Source: Kondoa subrosea (Eukaryota). From it: a DNA stretch of 64,000 nucleotides. Of this stretch, positions 14,314 to 50,515 are shown piece after piece (within the stretch, counting starts at the first letter, position 1; every line of letters begins with the position of its first letter). The stretch covers positions 1,100,604-1,164,603 of the forward strand of contig BCIN01000001.1 in the NCBI GenBank assembly GCA_039545335.1. The letters are read 5' to 3'. The notes beneath the pieces are model-generated. The model saw only the letters and a program-made list of their open reading frames with translations, made no database searches and was not told the DNA's origin. The position numbers were made by a program, and so were the translations under genes.

Positions 14314-14389
14314 GAGTTGAGTCGTGCTCAGCAGAAAAGGACACAACTTGTCTTGTGACTGTGACAGTCTCGAGATCAAATCTGGGTGG

Positions 14390-15582
14390 TCTGCTGTGTC
14401 TGTATACCCTGTTGGCTGCTCTATACCACACAAGCAGTGCTATTTCCGCAGTGACTCAGGCCTGCGCATGACTATGACAATCGTTTTATGGAAGTCAGCT
14501 CAAGGGAAGCTCTACCTTTGCTTCACTGGCTTCTGCACCTATCTATCACTGTCATACGACGCTTGGATACACACTACTGCTGCAATCGGGCTNNNNNNNN
14601 NNNNNNNNNNNNNNNNNNNNNNNNNNNNNNNNNNNNNNNNNNNNNNNNNNNNNNNNNNNNNNNNNNNNNNNNNNNNNNNNNNNNNNNNNNNNNNNNNNNN
14701 NNNNNNNNNNNNNNNNNNNNNNNNNNNNNNNNNNNNNNNNNNNNNNNNNNNNNNNNNNNNNNNNNNNNNNNNNNNNNNNNNNNNNNNNNNNNNNNNNNNN
14801 NNNNNNNNNNNNNNNNNNNNNNNNNNNNNNNNNNNNNNNNNNNNNNNNNNNNNNNNNNNNNNNNNNNNNNNNNNNNNNNNNNNNNNNNNNNNNNNNNNNN
14901 NNNNNNNNNNNNNNNNNNNNNNNNNNNNNNNNNNNNNNNNNNNNNNNNNNNNNNNNNNNNNNNNNNNNNNNNNNNNNNNNNNNNNNNNNNNNNNNNNNNN
15001 NNNNNNNNNNNNNNNNNNNNNNNNNNNNNNNNNNNNNNNNNNNNNNNNNNNNNNNNNNNNNNNNNNNNNNNNNNNNNNNNNNNNNNNNNNNNNNNNNNNN
15101 NNNNNNNNNNNNNNNNNNNNNNNNNNNNNNNNNNNNNNNNNNNNNNNNNNNNNNNNNNNNNNNNNNNNNNNNNNNNNNNNNNNNNNNNNNNNNNNNNNNN
15201 NNNNNNNNNNNNNNNNNNNNNNNNNNNNNNNNNNNNNNNNNNNNNNNNNNNNNNNNNNNNNNNNNNNNNNNNNNNNNNNNNNNNNNNNNNNNNNNNNNNN
15301 NNNNNNNNNNNNNNNNNNNNNNNNNNNNNNNNNNNNNNNNNNNNNNNNNNNNNNNNNNNNNNNNNNNNNNNNNNNNNNNNNNNNNNNNNNNNNNNNNNNN
15401 NNNNNNNNNNNNNNNNNNNNNNNNNNNNNNNNNNNNNNNNNNGGCATATCATTATATATTTTTGGAGAAGAAGGATTCTGCAATCATTTTCCAGATGAGT
15501 CGACCTCCACTCACTTCGCTTGAAGACTTCAACTGGTAGAGGAAAAGATGCAATAGGATTTAACGGTCGATTAGTTCTCGAT
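14390..15582. repeat. Copy A of the dispersed non-coding element (partial, spans the gap)
   Basis: 14390-14592 aligns with 16607-16820 and with the reverse complement of ~45035-45240. 15443-15537 is identical to 17369-17463, with diverged homology on to ~15582/17506. Confidence 0.9.
14593..15442. other. Assembly gap (850 N)
   Basis: Run of N. Confidence 1.
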
Positions 15583-15680
15583 GCTGCGCACCTCTGCTAT
15601 GCAAAACATACAATTCACTCGTAATGCCGCACATTCAGATGGAAACAAGGATCTCGGTGCATCTTTTTTGGTATTAGACT

Positions 15681-16085
15681 TGCTGTTGAGGGCTTGAATA
15701 TCGGTCAAGCTTCAACTTCCGGCAGATCAAACAAGAAGGCTAAAGGCATCAACGGTCAAGCTGTTGCCTTCAAAGCTGGTCGATTACCCAGGAGTGATAG
15801 TGTTGTGGCTGGTCTGGGTGATGAAGAGGTCAGTACACGTTCTTATATCCTGTCAATACTAATTTGTATATTTTCGTTCTAAGTAAGAAAGCTGTTAAGA
15901 TACATCGCTGTGTGCAGCGTGAGTGAAGTCAATAGACTTGCTGTACCTTCTGAGTTCGACAGACAGACAGACCAAGTCTAAAAGTCAAAGCGGCTCGCAC
16001 ATGGTCTTGATCGTTCATTGACAGCGCTGACAGTTCTGGGCAATCCGCCGAAAAGAGAGGCAAAGTAGGCACTCGCGCGCGATGA
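15681..16085 (+). pseudogene. NOG1: Degenerate duplicate of the NOG1 3' end, with both terminal introns retained
   Basis: Translates ..[35 protein letters not shown] versus NOG1 ..[35 protein letters not shown] (46020-46165). Later exons are frameshifted and there is no 5' part. Confidence 0.9.
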
Positions 16086-17222
16086 CCTCGTTAATATCTC
16101 GAATGCATCAGTGCCTTGTCGTCTGTATGCGGTTCTTATCAATCATTACTCTCCCTTTCTGGCTTTTGGCATTTCAGACTCAGCTCTGAGGTCTATTCCA
16201 TACAATCCTGCCACTCTATGTTTTACATCTCTTCTACCTCTTCCCTGACTTGTATCTCAATCGTCTATGTTATACAGTTCAAGGGCTGGACAATTGTATC
16301 ATCTATCCCTCTCCTCTACGAAACTCTTCACGACTAACGGGTCAGCTATTGAAGTCTCTCTGTCACAAGGAAGCTACTACTTCTGAATGACAGTCCAAAG
16401 ACCTTGCTGTCAGACTTTCGATTCTGGAGTGCTGCAGGAAGTCAGGTGAGACGAATACCGGAGAACGCGAATCCAACAGATGACAGAGGCGGTCTTGATG
16501 TAACATCGTAGCCTTGTACTAGTCCGAAGAGGCGAAATGTATCTGAACAGTAATGCCTTGACTTGCTTGACTCCAGACTGCGACTTTGTGGAAACCGAAC
16601 TTCGGTAGCCTGCTGGATCTGTGTATCATGTATGCTGCTGCTGCTGCTATATGCCACCGCAAGGAGTTCTACTTCGCAGCACCTCACGCCTGCGCATGAC
16701 TTTGACGGTCGTTTTATGGAAGTTGGCTCAAGGGAAGCTCTACCTTTGCTTCACTGGCTTCTGCACCTATCTATCACTGTCATACGACGCTTGGATACAC
16801 ACTACTGCTGCAATCGGGCTGACTGAGCAGTATTATCCAACTACGAGTATCAGAATCTAGACCAGCTTGCAAAGCCTTTCAAGATCCTTTTTGGACGCTG
16901 TACCATTGAGAAATATGTGGATAGCTTATAGCACTCATGCATACACGCTTTGGATCGCAAGAAATTCACACAGCGATTGTCATGCACCTGATTTCGCTCT
17001 CATGGCCTGCAATTGCCTTCAAGCAAAGGACTTGAGCGGAAGATGGCGGGATTGAAGAAGCGTCCGTCTCCGCAGTGGCGAGCCTTGAAAGCGAACAAAA
17101 CCCGCCTTGCACCTTCTCTTCCCTCTTGATCACCATCCGATCACTTCGATCTTACACTACCGCTTTGACAACGTACAAATGTGCCATCAGCATACTCTCA
17201 CCTGGTTCACCCTTGAATGCAA

Positions 17223-17378
17223 GGATGTCTCCGGTCCAGGAGGACTGATCTCTTGCTTGCATACCTTGTCGCTTCTTCCCTCGGGATCTCGGTGCAACTG
17301 ACATGCAATCACAGAAGAGATCTGTCCTCTGTCGAGTAGAGACTTGCTCGTCAAGCTTTCACCCGATCGGCATATCAT
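17223..17378 (-). ncRNA. Candidate structured RNA unit 3 (three-way junction)
   Basis: Minus strand reads GAAAGCTTGACGAGCAAGTCTCT, then a long stem enclosing CACCGAGATCCCGAGGGAAG. Same layout as the units at 44373 and 44526. Confidence 0.55.
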
Positions 17379-18092
17379 TATATATTTTTGGAGAAGAAGG
17401 ATTCTGCAATCATTTTCCAGATGAGTCGACCTCCACTCACTTCGCTTGAAGACTTCAACTGGTTCAGCCAAAGATGCAACAGGATCTACCGATCAAATAC
17501 TTCTCAATCAGATATCTGTGGAGTTTCTTACTTTAGGATGGTCCTTCTCGAGTATTTGCCTTTACATAAGTGGGTCTCTTGCTTATCTCCTGGTCATCTC
17601 TGCTATTTGGAACGATGGTCTTTGTGAGCAATAGCTAGCAAGAAGTTCATCAACTAGCAATGATCGTTCGCAAGTAATACGCTGCAAAGTCATCCGAAGG
17701 AAGTACCTGATGGCGTATAGTATGGATTTTCAATATGTGTAGCATCGAGTCAAAGTACATGCTCAAAGTACATGCTCCAAATTTGTACTACCGCTTGATC
17801 TTCGTTGGCAGATCTGCTTCCAGTTTCAATTTCGCGAAGCTCTCTTTCGCCAAAAAGTTGCAACAATACCTTAAACTGACACTGATATACCTGCTGTGTT
17901 CGCAACAATGACACGTCGGCGGTGCGTTCCAGCCATCTGGCAGCTGTCATTTCAAGAAAGACCAACCTCGCCTACTCGTGAATTCCCGATTTCCCTTCGC
18001 TTCCTATAACCAAGAGCAAGTTCCTTTCATCAAATACTTGCTCACCTCTCGTTATTCTACACCACTATAGACATATCGATTGCATTCTTCCT

Positions 18093-42250: not shown

Positions 42251-43927
42251 ATGAACAAAACCTTTACAACTTGCGATATTATTGATCCAGCCCTTGTAGC
42301 TGCAAAGAACAAGTCTCAATATCATCGACTCAATTTATCAGTCCGACCTGAAGAATGTGTGCAAGCAATTACAAGCACTACTAAACCTCCTACAGTCCCT
42401 TCTTCACCTACCTTCGCTACTCTACCACGTCTAGCTCACGCTCGTTCTACTTCTTTACCACACATTAAAAAGATTCGACAACCTTTGCCAGTTCCACCTT
42501 TACCTGATATCGTTTACAATGGATCAATAACCAATGTTATGGCTGAACAGCTTTCCGATATTGATCTAGAAGATTGCGAAGCTAACGGAGAAAATGCTTT
42601 CTTCGTTTGCGACTTGGCGGAAATTTATCGCTCTCATTTGTTCTGGCAAAAGGAGATGGCAGTAGTGTCAGAATCATCCACTGAAATTACTGCATTCTAT
42701 GGTTAGTGATGTATCAACCACATACATATATGTAGCTGAATAATCTGCTCACAGCCGTCAAGTGCAACCCTGATCCGACTGTCGTTCGATTGCTGGGTGC
42801 ATTGGGCCTGGGATTCGACTGCGCTTCACAAGCAGAGATTGAACTCGTCTTATCCCTCGGCATCTCTCCTTCTCGAATCATCTATGCCAATCCATGCAAA
42901 GCAGCTTCATTCATCCGTCACGCAGCAGCTTGCAACGTTCGTCTAATGACTTTCGACAACTTTGACGAGCTCAACAAAGTAGCTCGCTACCATCCTTCAG
43001 CTCAACTGGTTCTTCGAATCTTGGCAGACGATGAAGGTTCTTTGTGTCGCTTTGGAGCTAAATTTGGAGCAGCGGCGGAAATCGTTCCTGGTTTACTCAA
43101 GAAAGCTAAAGAGTTGAACTTGGAAGTCGTTGGCGTCTCGTTTCACGTGGGAAGCGGTTGCACCAATCCGTTGTTATATGAGAAAGCAATTGCTCAAGCG
43201 AAATGGGCATTTGAGTTGGCGGAGCAAGAAGGATTTAAGATGACTCTATTGGATATTGGTGGTGGATTTGAAGCAATTACTTTCAAGAGTATCGCTCAAG
43301 TGGTTAGGAGAGCTGTCGATACCTATTTCCCCAAAGAAAGTGGAGTCAAGATCATTGCTGAACCTGGACGATTCTTTGTCAGCGAAGCTTTCGAGTTGGC
43401 TACCAATATCATTGCTCGAAGAGGATTGGCTGAAGAGGAGGAGATTCCAGCCAAAGCTATGATTGAAGGAGAAGAAATGCCGATGGTTATGTGTAAGTTC
43501 AGACTACTTTGTTTACCTGAACACTTCTGAAGGCTTGTGCTCCCGTCCTACAGACTATGTGAACGATGGCGTTTATGGCGCATTCAATTGTATTCTCTTC
43601 GACCATCAAGTAGTACATCCCGAAATCCTCACTCTCGGTCATACTCTTTCGCTGTCTTCGTCTCGCAACGAGTCATGGGAGCCATCTTCCATTTGGGGAC
43701 CAACCTGCGATTCCATCGATCTCGTCTCCAAGTGTTCCACACTGCCGACCGATCAACTACAGATTGGCGACTGGCTTCGATGGCCAACAATGGGAGCATA
43801 CACGATATGCGCTGCAAGTCAATTCAATGGATTCAGAAAGAGTTTGGTCTACTATACTATAGATGCAAAGGGCGATAACGAAGTTGGTGGTCTGTTGTTT
43901 GATCTCCTTCAATTGCATTCGGCATAG
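42251..43927 (+). CDS. SPE1: Ornithine decarboxylase
   Basis: AFFVCDL, FY|AVKCNP (PLP lysine), GFDCAS..EI, IIYANPCK, SFHVGSG, LDIGGGF, IIAEPGRF, YVNDGVYG.FNC, WGPTCDSID, GAYT. Confidence 0.97.
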
Positions 43928-44372
43928 AATTTGTTTTTGTACAAAGGCCGAATTAGACGAATCAAAAAAGCTCAATGTATAGGGCAGCAAAGCGGTCAAA
44001 ATGTAATTAGTCAAAGAGCAGCATCTTATAAATGCATACATTCACAAACGTTGATCTACTTTACAAACTTGACTTGCGACAGGTATTCATCATTCTCTTC
44101 TGTTTCCTTAGAAGTGAGTCGTGACTGTATGAAGAAAGACATAGAAAGACATCAGTCCCAACGATGGTAGGGACGGTTCTAGCCAGCAAACACAAAAGAA
44201 ATATACATTGGAATGAGTGCGCAGGTGAAAATGAGTGCGCGTCGAAATATACTTGTGGATCATGCAAGGATTGTAGTGTGTCCAAGTGCTCTCATGTCTA
44301 TTCATCAATTTAGTAAAGCCTCTAAGACCGGAAAGGGCGCTACTCACTGAAATCCTCGTCCTTAATTCCGAA

Positions 44373-44521
44373 AAGGAACACGCCAGTCAAGAGAGAGCTT
44401 GACTAGCAAGTCTCTAAAGACAGAAGACAATCCTCAATTGCATGCCAGTCACACCGAGATCCCGAGGGAAGCAGTACCAAGACATGCAATTGAGGGATTT
44501 GTCAGTCCTAGCGTGTTCCTT
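44373..44521 (+). ncRNA. Candidate structured RNA unit 1
   Basis: 11-bp closing helix AAGGAACACGC/GCGTGTTCCTT, hairpin A at 44392-44415, and 13-bp perfect stem CCTCAATTGCATG/CATGCAATTGAGG around CCGAGATCCCGAGGGAA. Confidence 0.6.
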
Positions 44522-44525
44522 GCCC

Positions 44526-44675
44526 CATCTAAATGCAGTCTATGTGCCGGTCTGAAGAAAGCTTGACTAACAAGTCTCTTTTCGACGTATAAATGAACTT
44601 CTGATACCACAACAGCCACGCCGAGAACCCGAGGGAACAGGTAGCACTATTGTGGTATCAGAAGTGATATAGATG
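44526..44675 (+). ncRNA. Candidate structured RNA unit 2
   Basis: Motif A at 44557-44579, 16-bp perfect stem 44597-44612/44650-44665 around CCGAGAACCCGAGGGAA, and closing helix CATCTA/TAGATG. Confidence 0.6.
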
Positions 44676-45760
44676 CGAAGGTATCTTGACTACAGTAAGT
44701 CAAAGGGAGATTGAGCTGTATGAGGAAAAGGAAAGGAAAGGTGAAAAGCTGGGTTTTGTTTGGTTCCAAGGCTCGCCACTGCGGAGACGGACGCTTCTTC
44801 AATCCAGCCATCTTTTGATGAGTTGCTTTGCTTGAAGGCAATTGCAGGCCATGAGAGAGAAATCAGATGCATGACAATCGCTGTGTGAATTCTTTGCGAT
44901 CCAAAGCCTTCATTCGTGAGTGCTATATGCTATCCACGCGCTTCTCGAATATACAGTGTCGAAAAGGAGTCATGAAAGGCTTTGCAAGCTAGTCTAGATT
45001 CTGATGCTCGTCGTTGAATAATATTGCTCAGCCAGCCCAATTGCACCCAGTAGTGTGTAGCCAAGCATCGTATGACAGTGATAAATAGGTGCAGAAGCCA
45101 GTGAAGCGATGCCGGAACTCCCTTTCAGCCAATTTCCATAAAACGATACTCATAGTCATGCGCAGGCGTGAAATACTGCAGAGTAGCACTCCTTGCGGTG
45201 GTATAGAGCAGCCGACAGGGTATACAGACACAGCAGGCCTACCGAAGTTCGGTTTCCACAAAGTCGCAGTCTGGAGTCAAGCAAGTCAAGGCATTACTAT
45301 TCAGATACATTTCGCCTCTTCGGACTAGTACACGGCTACGATGTTACATCAAGACCGCCTCTGTCACCTCTTGCATCCATATTCTCCGGTATCCATCTCA
45401 CCTGACTTCCTGCAGCACTCCAGAATTCCAGAATCGAAAGTTTGACAGCAAGGTCTTAGGCTGCCATTCAGAAGTAGTAGCTTTCTGATGTCAGAGAGAG
45501 ACTTCAATAGCTGACCTGTTAGTCTTGAAGAGTTTCGTAGAGGGAGGAATAGAAGATACAATCCTCCAGCCCTTGGACTGCTTGATGTGGACGACCGAGA
45601 TACAAGTCAGAAGAGAGGTAGAAGAAATGCAAGACACAGTGCGGAAGAACTGATAGCAGAGACACAGAAGGTCAGTTCGAAAAGCCAAACAGTGAGAGGT
45701 AAGGACCAAGAGAAGCATGAAAAGGCCACAAGGCAGTGATGCATATGAGATACAATCCAA

Positions 45761-48394
45761 TCAACGACTGCGAGTGGATCCTTTGCCTCTCTTCCCAGCG
45801 AACTGCACGAGAAATGTCAGATGTGTTAATAAATGAATAAAACCACGCACAAGCCACTTCGGCATCTTTGTCTTGATCTGTCTATCGGATTCGGAAGCCT
45901 TGGCAAGTCTGTTAGGTTCACGCTGCGCAAAGCGATGTATCTTGACAGCTTTCTTGAGTTGCTGTTAGCGAAAACATGCAGATTAGTGTTGATCAGACAT
46001 AAGAAGGTTGTACTGACCTCTTCATCACGTAGACCAGCCATGTTGCGATCACTCTTTGGTAACCGACCAGCTTTGAGGGCAACAGCTTGACCAGTAATGC
46101 CTTTGGCCTTCTTGTTGGATCTGCCAGAAGTTGCAGCTTCATCGACATCCATGCCCTCTACAGCATCCTCATCGACCCAGCCAAAGCCTTCAGCAGTCTC
46201 ATCCGCATCCACTTCCATATCATCAGCATTACGTTTCCTCTTTCCAGCAGCTTTCGATAAAGTTCTTGCTTGAGCGACCATTGCTGCTCTTGCTTCGATA
46301 TTCGATGGATCATATCCTGCTCTTCGCATATCTTCAGTCATTGTAGATACTTTGCGATTTTGATTCTTTCGGGGAATAGGTGCCAAATTTCTCATCATAT
46401 CTTTCCTGGTATGATTATTGAGACGGATCGTATCCCTGCGAAGTCGAATAGCAGCGGCAGTCTCCCTAATGGCTTCATCTGCTGAATCAGCTTCTTCGCC
46501 ATCGTCAGAGTCGTAGAAGCCATCAGCATCGAGTTGGATTTCTTCCTTTTCGAGTTCGTCCAGACGAGCAAGAATGTCGGCATCAATGAAATCAGCTACG
46601 TTCTTGCCATTGGCCAGTTCAGGTAAGATATCATGCTTCCAGTCATCATTCGCAAGAAGGTAAGTTTCTGTGCAAAAATACAGCAAGGATTAGCCAAGAC
46701 TCAGTGGATTGAGAACAAGACGCACTTTTGAGATCTGATGAGTATACACCGGCGCCTCCATTCTCAGCTTCCAGATCTTTCTCCAACCGTCTGCGCATAG
46801 GATCTTCAGGATCATACTTCTTCCTTTCCGCAACTCCAGCAGGAATATGAGCAGTTCGAACTACATCATCTCTCGCGGTAGGCGTAGCAACTCTGAGCCT
46901 GTTGACAACATTATCGACTCGTTTGGTCTTCTCCTTTGTTTCGACTCGATGAGCGAGTAAAGCATCGCAAGCTGCATTTCTGACATCCATTACACCTTCT
47001 TCGGAAACGCATGAGAGTTGTAAAAGATTAACATTTTCATCTTCGAGTATGCTGTCGAGGAGAGCTTTGTTGCCTGCATCGAGATCTTCAGGTCGCATCA
47101 CATCGATCTTGTTGACGACAATGAAGGTAGGTTTATTGGCAAAGAGAGGTTTGATGGATTCGTACAGCTTGCACTGTCGGTACCCACGATCACATATCAG
47201 ATATGGCCTGAATGTAATCTGAGGTGACCAACCTGAGCTTCCACAGTGTAACCACATTGTTCACTCAAGTCCATGAAGTACATCACACAACTTCTCAAAT
47301 GAGCCAAAGCAGTAATACTTTGCATTTCGATGGTGTTCATTTCATCTAAAGGGTGATCGAGCACACCAGGAGTGTCGATGACTTGCCACCGAAGGTACTT
47401 GTAGTCCATATGACCCACGAAAAGAGATTTGGTTGTGAATGCGTAAGGTTGGACATCAACATCTGCTCGTGTAACCTTGTTGACGAAGGACGATTTGCCG
47501 ACGTTCGGATAGCCGCAGATAAGGAGAGTACGGGTGGTAGGATCGATAGCTGGCAGACGAGACATGTGTTGTCTCACTTGTTCGAGATAGGCTAAAGGGT
47601 CTTTCTGACGCTTCATGATCGTAGCCATTCGGCCAAGTGCAGCTTTTTTGAGCATCTTACAGCGGTATAGCGAATCGCCGAACTTGAGAAGTCGGGCGTA
47701 GTCTTTGCCGACCTGGAATCACTTTAGAGTCGAGTTTTGAGAAAACTAAAAACAGCTTACTGCGTCAACAAGATGTCTCGCTGTATTCAGTTGCCCTAGA
47801 GCCAGCTTGTAGTGCTGTAATAACTTATAAGCACATATTGAGTGAGGTTGAATCGCTAACTTACATTTTTGTCGTACAAGACATTGAGAAGTGAAGCGAG
47901 GAAAGGATGTAGATTCTATTGGAAGGATCAGCCAGGACGATTGACGGAAGCATGAGGGACATACATCCAAGACGGGGAACTCTGTTAGGATCTTGTCTAA
48001 TCGTTCGTGGAAAGCATCTTGCGCCCATTTGACTTTTCGCATGTAGAATGACCTGTTGCCATGTGAGCCTTTGCATCCAGTCGAGCAATACCACTGACCT
48101 GATTCTAGAGATCTTGAAACCTTTGTGAATTCTGAGCAATCACTCAGTCGCAGGTCGCAAAATGCAGTCCAGCCTAACATACTGTGTAGGCGTTTTCCGC
48201 TACAAGATTTGCAGTGTTTAGACATGACCAAGCAAGTTGAAGCAGCTGTCGACTAACCTGAAGCCCAGACAGGACAATATCCAAGAAATCTTCACCTAAG
48301 CAAATGTGCATGAGCAACAATCCAGATTCAACAAGACTAGCGAATCACTTGTCGGAACAGGCGCAATCGCCTTCAAAGCACCACGATTGCTCAT
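45761..48394 (-). CDS. NOG1: Nucleolar GTP-binding protein 1
   Basis: [57 protein letters not shown] domain, C-terminal [11 protein letters not shown]. Confidence 0.97.
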
Positions 48395-48735: not shown

Positions 48736-50515
48736 TCATGCTATCTTCGCTTTCTTCTTCGGCGACGGAGAAGAAGGTGAAGACGGAGCTGACTTCTTGC
48801 CAAAGAATCCAGTCAAGCTTGTCTGCCCTTTGGCCAACTCTTCCTCTTTTCGCTTCTTCTTCCCCGCTGCTGAATTGGGGTCCTACAGATCACATCAGCT
48901 TTGCAATGGCTGCAGTACGGAGACACACACAATGACACCAATTTCCAGTCCTTTGTCCATGAACTCTTGAACTAAGATCATATGCAGATGAGTTACAATA
49001 CTTGTATAGATCATGAGAACTTACATAGCTCAAGCTTGATTATTCCACCAGTCGCTTCATTATGACCACTAGCAAAGTCGTGTCCTACTCTTTCAAGGAA
49101 CGTAGTTGATGCAGATGCTGCATATTCTTTCAGCAACGTTCGAAGATTAGGTCTTTCGCCTTCAGGTAATTTGCGGAGTGAGGAGTTGATACGACAAGAG
49201 AAAGAAGTCATATCTGGATCAGGATGATGGCCTGGAAGAGGAGCCGATATTCAGGTTTTGTACTACTCAGGTAATCATGCTCGAAATCACCTTTATTCTC
49301 GACCATGATGCATTCTCTACTCCTCAATCAGAGGTAATCTCGTCAACACAAAAGTAAGACATACATTTTCTTGGACTTGCTCAGCGTTCCAGCCCATCGT
49401 GTAGCAATAACGGGATGCACCTGAAAGCCACTATCGATTCTGAATAAAGCGACACGACCATCTTTACTGAATTGAGGTGCAGTATGAGTACACCTTTCCA
49501 CTTCTTTGTTGACTGCTTCACGACATTCGAGTAATGCGTCGTTATTGAGGATATCGGAAGGTTTCTCCGCTTGATAAATCGCGTCCCAAGCAGATTTCAC
49601 TGCACTTGCATATTAGACACATCAAGTAATTAAGACATATAACGCACCATTGAACTCTGCTGTTCGTCGAGCTGTCAGAGGTTGTCAGCAACTACCTTGG
49701 CGAAAGGGACGAGGGACTTGCGAGCATTGAGCATACTCACAGCATCTCCTAGCGTCTTCTTTCCTTCCCTTTTGGCTGCTTCTCCCAGCGCAATCATTTC
49801 CTTTGTCACTGGCCAACCATTCTTTCCGTCACCAAACTTGATTTCCGATTGACCTAGATCGCCGAATATACCAACAATCGCGGCCCAGTCTGTATCTTCA
49901 GGTACGCTCGGATGTAGAGGGCAGCAAGTAAGATAAGTGAGAAGGGAAGAAGTACAGATAGGTGAAGAATGACAAGCGGTAAGATGGATTGATTCAGCTG
50001 GCCACTCTTCGCATTGATGATGATCGAGAATCAGAGTTGAGATCTTGACATCCTCTCCTACTCCTTCTACATCGTTTGATCTGACTAAAGCTCGTCCTGG
50101 TCGACTGCCTTGATCTAATACTATAAGTCGAGCATGTTTCCTATCCCCAATGTGCTGCTTGAAAAGTGATTCCATGCGAGATCTTTCATGCGCACTCAGA
50201 GAAAATGTAAAGAGACAGAAGAAGAGCGACAAACCTTTCAACGTCGCCAAACATACTTTGGCCTTTACTCAAGAAATGCATATGAAGCATTTCTTCTGGC
50301 AGTCCAAGCAAAACAAGAGTCTTGTACAGCACCAACCCAGCGCTTAATCCGTCAGCATCCTTGTCGGGGCAGATTACAGTCAAATCTCGATCAGCTGCTG
50401 TTTGCTTGATAAACGCTCTAGCAGCTTCTAATTGAGATATAGGAGCAGGCCAATCTTCAAAAGGCTTGACGTTGCATTGATGAATAGGTAGAGGGGCAGC
50501 TTTCTTTGACGCCAT
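48736..50515 (-). CDS. DHH-family phosphoesterase-like protein
   Basis: PDKDADGL, VLDQGSR, ILDHH, GDLG and FASGH..ATGG motifs. Confidence 0.78.

Follow-up and report, generated by a model that had tools for sequence, protein, structure and literature searches.

The window, i.e. the whole 64,000-nt stretch of DNA analysed here, was found to contain a family of structured modules that is real, unusually well folded and unmatched in Rfam, resting on two lineages from one genome. Two of the units lie head to tail and 4 nt apart near 44 kb, and a third lies near 17 kb on the opposite strand. The real signal is the comparison of units 1 and 2, the sole deep comparison: two blocks have been conserved between these units, while the segments outside the blocks are no more alike than shuffled sequences and yet pair at the same places. 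We tentatively read the modules, with a confidence somewhat short of even, as a lineage-restricted non-coding RNA whose helices need only pair.

Predicted fold of the modules

An intact module takes on a Y shape in the predicted fold, consisting of a closing helix, a short hairpin with a constant top (hairpin A), a long arm, a small apical helix and a constant loop of ~22 nt (Table 1). All three units were recovered at the positions given by a first-pass annotation of the DNA, and the tandem period of approximately 165 nt that it had reported corresponds to 164–167 nt between equivalent points of units 1 and 2. The long stems also pair as described, at 13 of 13 positions in unit 1, 16 of 16 in unit 2 (extending to 18 of 19) and 14 of 15 in unit 3, and arm length ranges from 16 to ~25 bp across the units. 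Among the 13 + 16 pairs that make up the perfect arm parts of units 1 and 2 there are no G-U pairs, which fits an origin by replication template switching, that is, by DNA copying.

The closing helices had been described as different in sequence yet paired. This holds for unit 1, with 11 bp, and for unit 2, where 6 bp form in the predicted fold, or 8 by eye if an A-A mismatch is allowed; the closing helix of unit 3, however, is weak at about 4 bp. Homology between units 3 and 1 begins only at a GCC just before hairpin A, from which it follows that the duplication removed the 5' strand of the unit 3 closing helix. The minimum-energy fold of unit 3 moreover breaks hairpin A, and forcing this hairpin costs 3.3 kcal/mol. 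In units 2 and 3 the lower portion of hairpin A is paired through differing letters; in unit 1 it is an internal loop.

Both constant motifs are specific to the units. When the 64-kb window was searched with up to 3 mismatches, the apical-loop motif CCGAGANCCCGAGGGAA and the hairpin A top AGCTTGACNARCAAGTCTCT were each matched three times, always exactly and always within a unit, as had been claimed. Shuffled sequences gave a mean of 0.37 matches for the former and 0.04 for the latter, and none of 100 shuffles reached three matches for either motif. Two CCG triplets, 5 bases apart, are present in the apical-loop motif. When the three units were used to build an nhmmer profile and a covariance model, the searches recovered the units themselves (E 1e-32 to 1e-38, 106–133 bits); the only other matches worth noting in the 64 kb were the unit 3 reverse strand and, weakly, a fragment at 15649-15678 (E 0.7).

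Table 1. Positions in the window of the units, their parts, the constant motifs and the features of the duplicated loci. Units 1 and 2 are in layout orientation on the plus strand.
Feature	Position	Strand	Remark
Unit 1	44373-44521	+	fold -55.2 kcal/mol, z -5.7
Unit 1 closing helix	44373-44383/44511-44521	+	11 bp
Unit 1 hairpin A	44386-44421	+	
Unit 1 long-arm strands	44426-44444/44483-44503	+	
Unit 1 apical region	44445-44482	+	
Unit 2	44526-44675	+	fold -46.1 kcal/mol, z -3.7
Unit 2 closing helix	44526-44534/44667-44675	+	
Unit 2 hairpin A	44550-44586	+	
Unit 2 perfect arm	44597-44612/44650-44665	+	16 bp
Unit 3	17223-17378	-	fold -56.1 kcal/mol, z -3.3; unit 1 paralogue within inverted segmental copy
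Unit 3 hairpin A	17366-17332	-	
Unit 3 arm strands	17329-17300/17265-17240	-	
Constant apical-loop motif CCGAGANCCCGAGGGAA	44454-44470, 44621-44637, 17276-17292	+, +, -	exact in 3 of 3 units
Constant hairpin A top AGCTTGACNARCAAGTCTCT	44396-44415, 44560-44579, 17338-17357	+, +, -	exact in 3 of 3 units
Eroded hairpin-A-like stretch after unit 2	44677-44710	+	44677-44692 81% like hairpin A start
Shared flank with 3' end of NOG1-like gene	44726-46165		inverted counterpart 17127-15681
Decayed apical motif after unit 3	17117-17131		
Exact 12-nt piece of apical block, GCACCGAGATCC	15649-15660	-	at tandem-copy junction; nhmmer E 0.7
Probable fourth unit, first 10 bases	15443-15452	-	identical to unit 3 start; runs into N
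Run of 850 N	14593-15442		hides most of second tandem copy

Constant blocks and replaced helices in the tandem units

Units 1 and 2 share two blocks of ~34 nt that are identical at 28 of 34 and 29 of 35 positions (82–83%), whereas the three remaining segments show identities of 0.30, 0.46 and 0.42, which is the level obtained with shuffled sequences. The two units pair at matching relative places, namely in the closing helix, the extended hairpin A, the long arm and the short helix below the loop. The central proposition of the first-pass annotation, that conserved loops are combined with replaced yet paired stems, is thus borne out between units 1 and 2; unit 3, which had been counted as a further witness to it, does not serve as an independent one.

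Two-sided changes were found in the 5-bp helix under the constant loop in a MAFFT alignment of the units, at columns 76-104 (C-G in unit 2, U-A in unit 3) and columns 78-102 (A-U in units 1 and 2, G-C in unit 3). RNAalifold on this alignment gave two-sided change in 8 of 39 predicted pairs, a count that comes from three sequences of two lineages, together with a covariation term of +3.99, which amounts to a net penalty. The penalty arises partly because MAFFT misaligns the unit 2 arm, and the arm is likewise misplaced when the units are aligned with the covariance model. With three sequences from two lineages, a formal covariation test is without power.

Duplication history

Unit 3 had been listed as a third unit but is not an independent instance of the module, as the locus of units 1 and 2 is present there as an inverted copy. 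Self-comparison of the window matched 15681-17127 (+) to 46165-44726 at about 80% (79.9–80.1%) over 1471–1478 columns, and 17257-17360, in unit 3, to 44489-44393, in unit 1, at 76%. The shared flank contains ten perfect runs of at least 20 nt; 119 of 1459 windows of 20 nt are perfect, and 147 of 1436 windows of 43 nt have at most 2 mismatches. Motif identity between units 1 and 3 does not exceed what such stretches of flank show and therefore proves nothing. The shared flank includes the 3' end of a NOG1-like gene, and the piece at ~15.7–16.0 kb is therefore a fragment of that 3' end carried along in the duplication (15681-17127, 14388-14592) and not a second gene. The inverted copy is itself partly duplicated in tandem, with 91% identity between 15443-15582 and 17369-17508 and 90% between 14415-14592 and 16643-16820. 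The size of the N run within the second tandem copy disagrees with the spacing of the intact copy, the offsets being 2228 and 1926 on its two sides.

Eroded copies were observed at both loci, and duplication breakpoints fall at or inside units. The stretch that directly follows unit 2 is possibly the remnant of a third tandem unit and gave no significant match to the profile or the covariance model; the 12-nt piece at the tandem-copy junction looks like a truncated unit. Two DNA runs of a single sample, which may itself have supplied the window, gave contigs that bear on the locus. One contig of 418 letters aligned to 44546-44702, from which it differs by 18 letters and 2 gaps, and was unlike the window before 44546, which means that a further diverged copy of unit 2 exists; the apical motif of this copy contains one insertion and one deletion. 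In another contig 44471 is joined to 44751, in keeping with the 17-kb locus, which lacks most of unit 2. Several more contigs (at least 80% likeness) fell on ~44669-45271, adjoining the modules, and this segment looks like a low-copy dispersed repeat without a recognisable protein family.

Stability and strand of the predicted folds

Every 150-nt window of the 64 kb was folded on both strands, which gave 5030 folds with a mean of -32.8 and a standard deviation of 6.9 kcal/mol. Within this set, unit 1 ranks first to second, unit 3 fourth and unit 2 ninth in fold energy. Together, the motif matches, the inverted repeats and the fold ranks indicate that the structures are not due to chance. The third most stable 150 nt of the 64 kb (-59.4 kcal/mol, z -4.8) contains a near-perfect 18-bp hairpin with a 4-nt loop at 48744-48783 (+), upstream of the NOG1-like gene.

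The first-pass annotation had assigned function to the plus strand at 44 kb and the minus strand at 17 kb. This assignment was not upheld for the tandem units, which fold better on the opposite strand, at -68.0 kcal/mol (z -8.4) versus -55.2 (z -5.7) for unit 1 and -54.1 kcal/mol (z -6.4) versus -46.1 (z -3.7) for unit 2. On that strand the apical region of both units gains an extra helix by way of G-U pairs. Unit 3 alone slightly prefers the strand that had been proposed (-56.1 kcal/mol, z -3.3, versus -53.7 kcal/mol, z -2.4).

Known families, relatives and neighbouring genes

In agreement with the earlier failure to place the units in a known RNA class, no match to any of the 4227 models of Rfam 15 was obtained in the whole window at gathering thresholds, a result that covers the known self-cleaving ribozymes, snRNAs, snoRNAs and riboswitches. 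A permissive search of 43900-45900 gave nothing meaningful: its best hit (E 0.28) lay opposite the unit 2 arm, on the other strand, and reached 22.9 bits where the family threshold is 90. Within the same interval the hammerhead, twister, pistol, hatchet, HDV-like, hairpin and VS ribozyme models had no match at E up to 10. In the part of a survey of 17 fungal structural RNAs that was consulted (PMC8216456), no description of such an element was found; this was a limited and not an in-depth literature search.

Relatives outside this genome were found neither in viral and prokaryote collections nor among the metagenome matches listed. The pattern combining both motifs had no match in viral or metagenome contigs, and a relaxed form of it had none in genome contigs. 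The apical motif alone occurred at no fewer than 120 loci in metagenome contigs (median GC 0.59 over the 121 loci listed), and no hairpin-A-like site within 5 substitutions was present among these 121. Single motifs had three viral matches in which the likeness was confined to the motif. When the covariance model was run on 123 retrieved loci, all scored at most 19 bits versus 106–133 for the units.

A protein-coding origin of the repeat was considered and rejected, as the frame shared by the units has stops in unit 2 and the motifs of unit 3 are 70 nt apart, i.e. out of frame. By eye, the variation in block 1 lies mostly at third-codon positions of one frame. No homologues of the 66-aa frame of unit 1 or of the 101-aa ORF over unit 3 were found among the proteins of near length that were searched.

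Searches of the window with the long arms gave matches at the level of chance: in the first search both of the 2 matches were the arm itself, in the second 5 matches were found versus 2.36 expected (9 of 100 shuffles reach 5), and in the third 3 matches versus 3.61 expected.

The array lies between convergent genes and thus between their 3' ends. One gene is ornithine-decarboxylase-like (Pfam Orn_Arg_deC_N, E 4e-74; last ORF ending at 43927) and the other NOG1-like, with NOG1, NOGCT and MMR_HSR1 domains and a last long ORF ending at 45826; each is split into several ORF pieces, and both are placed among eukaryotes with no phylum standing out. A Pfam search with 12 intergenic ORFs gave no convincing family and no transposase-like ORF, and ARAGORN found no tRNA genes in the 64-kb window and no tRNA-like cloverleaf of the tRNA/SINE kind. 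The last codons of the decarboxylase-like gene (43905-43918) are complementary at 13 of 14 positions to the 3' strand of the unit 1 arm (44484-44497) on the same strand, a complementarity that is within chance according to window-wide counts. An 11-mer, AATGAGTGCGC, occurs twice, 18 nt apart, at 44212-44222 and 44230-44240, ~130–160 nt before unit 1, and the pair is followed by the A/T-rich AAATATAC. Together, AATGAGTGCGC and AAATATAC may represent a promoter-like element.

Discussion

The non-coding RNA reading is put forward because units 1 and 2 keep two blocks and pair at the same places when their other segments are at the level of shuffled sequence, and because the apical helix and the lower hairpin A pair through changed letters. 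The ranks of the folds, the exact motifs, the unlikelihood of a coding origin and the lack of a transposon protein nearby argue in the same direction. The modules would then constitute a small lineage-restricted array, of units of 150–165 nt, in an intron-bearing eukaryote that is probably a fungus. We infer that they may be transcribed, presumably from one acting strand and as a multi-unit precursor in which each unit would fold into the Y shape, and that the constant parts may have a recognition role: a protein or a further RNA could recognise the hairpin top and the ~22-nt loop. Sequence change in the helices would be tolerated as long as pairing is kept. Template switching in DNA replication probably generated or renewed the perfect Watson-Crick arms, which were then kept for their pairing. 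Along with ~1.8 kb of flank, the array was copied to a second locus in inverted orientation, and some of the units there are eroding. Weighing against the RNA reading are the restriction to two deep lineages, the covariation penalty, the lack of a consistent strand, the G-U-free arms, the eroded copies and the absence of relatives.

Several of these points are equally what would be expected of an eroding tandem or segmental repeat without function, whose palindromes were made and perfected by template switching (quasipalindrome correction) and whose blocks are simply the parts that have not yet been overwritten. In such a repeat, arms with only Watson-Crick pairs, folding of both strands with no consistent preference, eroded and truncated copies, and duplication breakpoints at or within units would all be accounted for, and the block identity of ~82% between units 1 and 2 is near the 80% of the duplicated flanks. 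Template switching is also reported to create perfect RNA hairpins, in the portion of the literature source consulted (PMC8794818). Independent mutational accidents, however, would not be expected to place four nested helices at the same relative positions with different letters, and the segments outside the blocks are at the level of shuffled sequence, so that the blocks must be constrained if the units are that old. We regard a functionless repeat as the main rival, and a credible one, somewhat less likely than the RNA reading. The freely varying duplex could, on the other hand, be the product itself. As precursors of small RNAs, the units would have their variable 16–25-bp arm diced, with the constant hairpin and loop recruiting processing factors; the arm lengths and the 4-nt spacing of units 1 and 2, like that of a polycistronic precursor, are in keeping with this. 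The arms nevertheless had no matches above chance elsewhere in the window, and known families of small RNAs conserve the duplex, so that its variation here is the reverse of what these families show; such an origin is accordingly improbable.

Remnants of a MITE or foldback transposon, small and non-autonomous, would contain inverted repeats, as the modules do, and the modules adjoin the segment at ~44669-45271 that is covered by several further contigs. In the modules, however, it is the interior that is conserved, while the inverted repeats differ between units to the level of shuffled sequence, the opposite of what a transposon family shows; by eye no target-site duplication is seen beside the arms or closing helices, every copy seen in the window is part of a single duplicated locus, and a transposase-like ORF is lacking among those examined. 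Together these observations make a transposon remnant quite improbable. There is even less reason to regard the constant blocks as regulatory sites that act at the level of DNA. The spaced CCG pair of the apical motif is arranged in a way that we take to resemble the sites of zinc-cluster factors, yet such sites would leave the paired arms unexplained and would here be located between the 3' ends of convergent genes; we give this very little credence. The proposal of a self-cleaving ribozyme in a tandem repeat of the retrozyme or satellite type, which had been raised at first pass, draws on the tandem arrangement and on the closing helix of each unit, and a protein-coding repeat draws on the third-codon variation in block 1. 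With no ribozyme family matched even at E up to 10 and junction bases that are not conserved, and with a shared frame that is interrupted by stops in unit 2, broken in unit 3 and without a protein homologue, both are highly unlikely.

Under the non-coding RNA reading, a more specific and decidedly speculative design can be envisaged, in which the freely replaceable 16–25-bp arm is the payload, a guide or small-RNA duplex, of a new class of Y-shaped structured RNA. A complex for processing or for effector function would assemble on the constant parts, template switching would supply new arms and the modules would multiply in tandem. We consider it a long shot. Should the modules prove to be transcribed, and to be conserved in related organisms, they would represent an undescribed RNA family of a eukaryotic microbe without counterpart in Rfam. 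They would combine a constant loop and side hairpin with a replaceable long duplex, which is an unusual design, and would be a clear case of a functional RNA that obtains its helices ready-made, from template switching. Untranscribed, they are of modest interest as a compact example of palindromes that arise, mark duplication breakpoints and decay.

Relation to known systems

Clusters of microRNAs and fungal microRNA-like precursors resemble the modules in that their hairpins are close-set in tandem and contain duplexes of 16–25 bp. Here, however, it is the duplex that varies, the loop and a side hairpin that are constant, and the apical region of ~37 nt is structured. The tandem ribozymes of the hammerhead type, including those of retrozymes, likewise form tandem units, 150–165 nt long here, with a closing helix and a three-way junction. 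Unlike in those ribozymes, the conserved bases of the modules are found in the hairpin top and the apical loop instead of the junction, and no ribozyme in Rfam was matched. MITE and foldback elements share inverted repeats and small size with the modules; the termini of the modules are, in contrast, not common to the copies, no target-site duplication is seen and the copies in the window are not dispersed.

Scaffolds of the Y RNA and vault RNA type are comparable in architecture: a closing helix joins the ends, and variable helices are combined with constant modules, the latter being candidate sites for proteins. The modules described here differ from them in having no sequence or Rfam similarity to either, and to our knowledge neither family is known in fungi. 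A run of four T is present within unit 2, which argues against transcription by RNA polymerase III.

Replication template switching reportedly both creates hairpins in RNA and maintains them (Monttinen and Loytynoja 2022, PMC8794818). It is a mutational process and not a functional class, and leaves the recurrence of the two blocks and of the four-helix layout unexplained. The likeness to hairpins of this origin lies in the stems of the modules, which are perfect, contain Watson-Crick pairs only and appear wholesale as opposed to by stepwise compensatory change, and in the palindromes that are located at rearrangement breakpoints.
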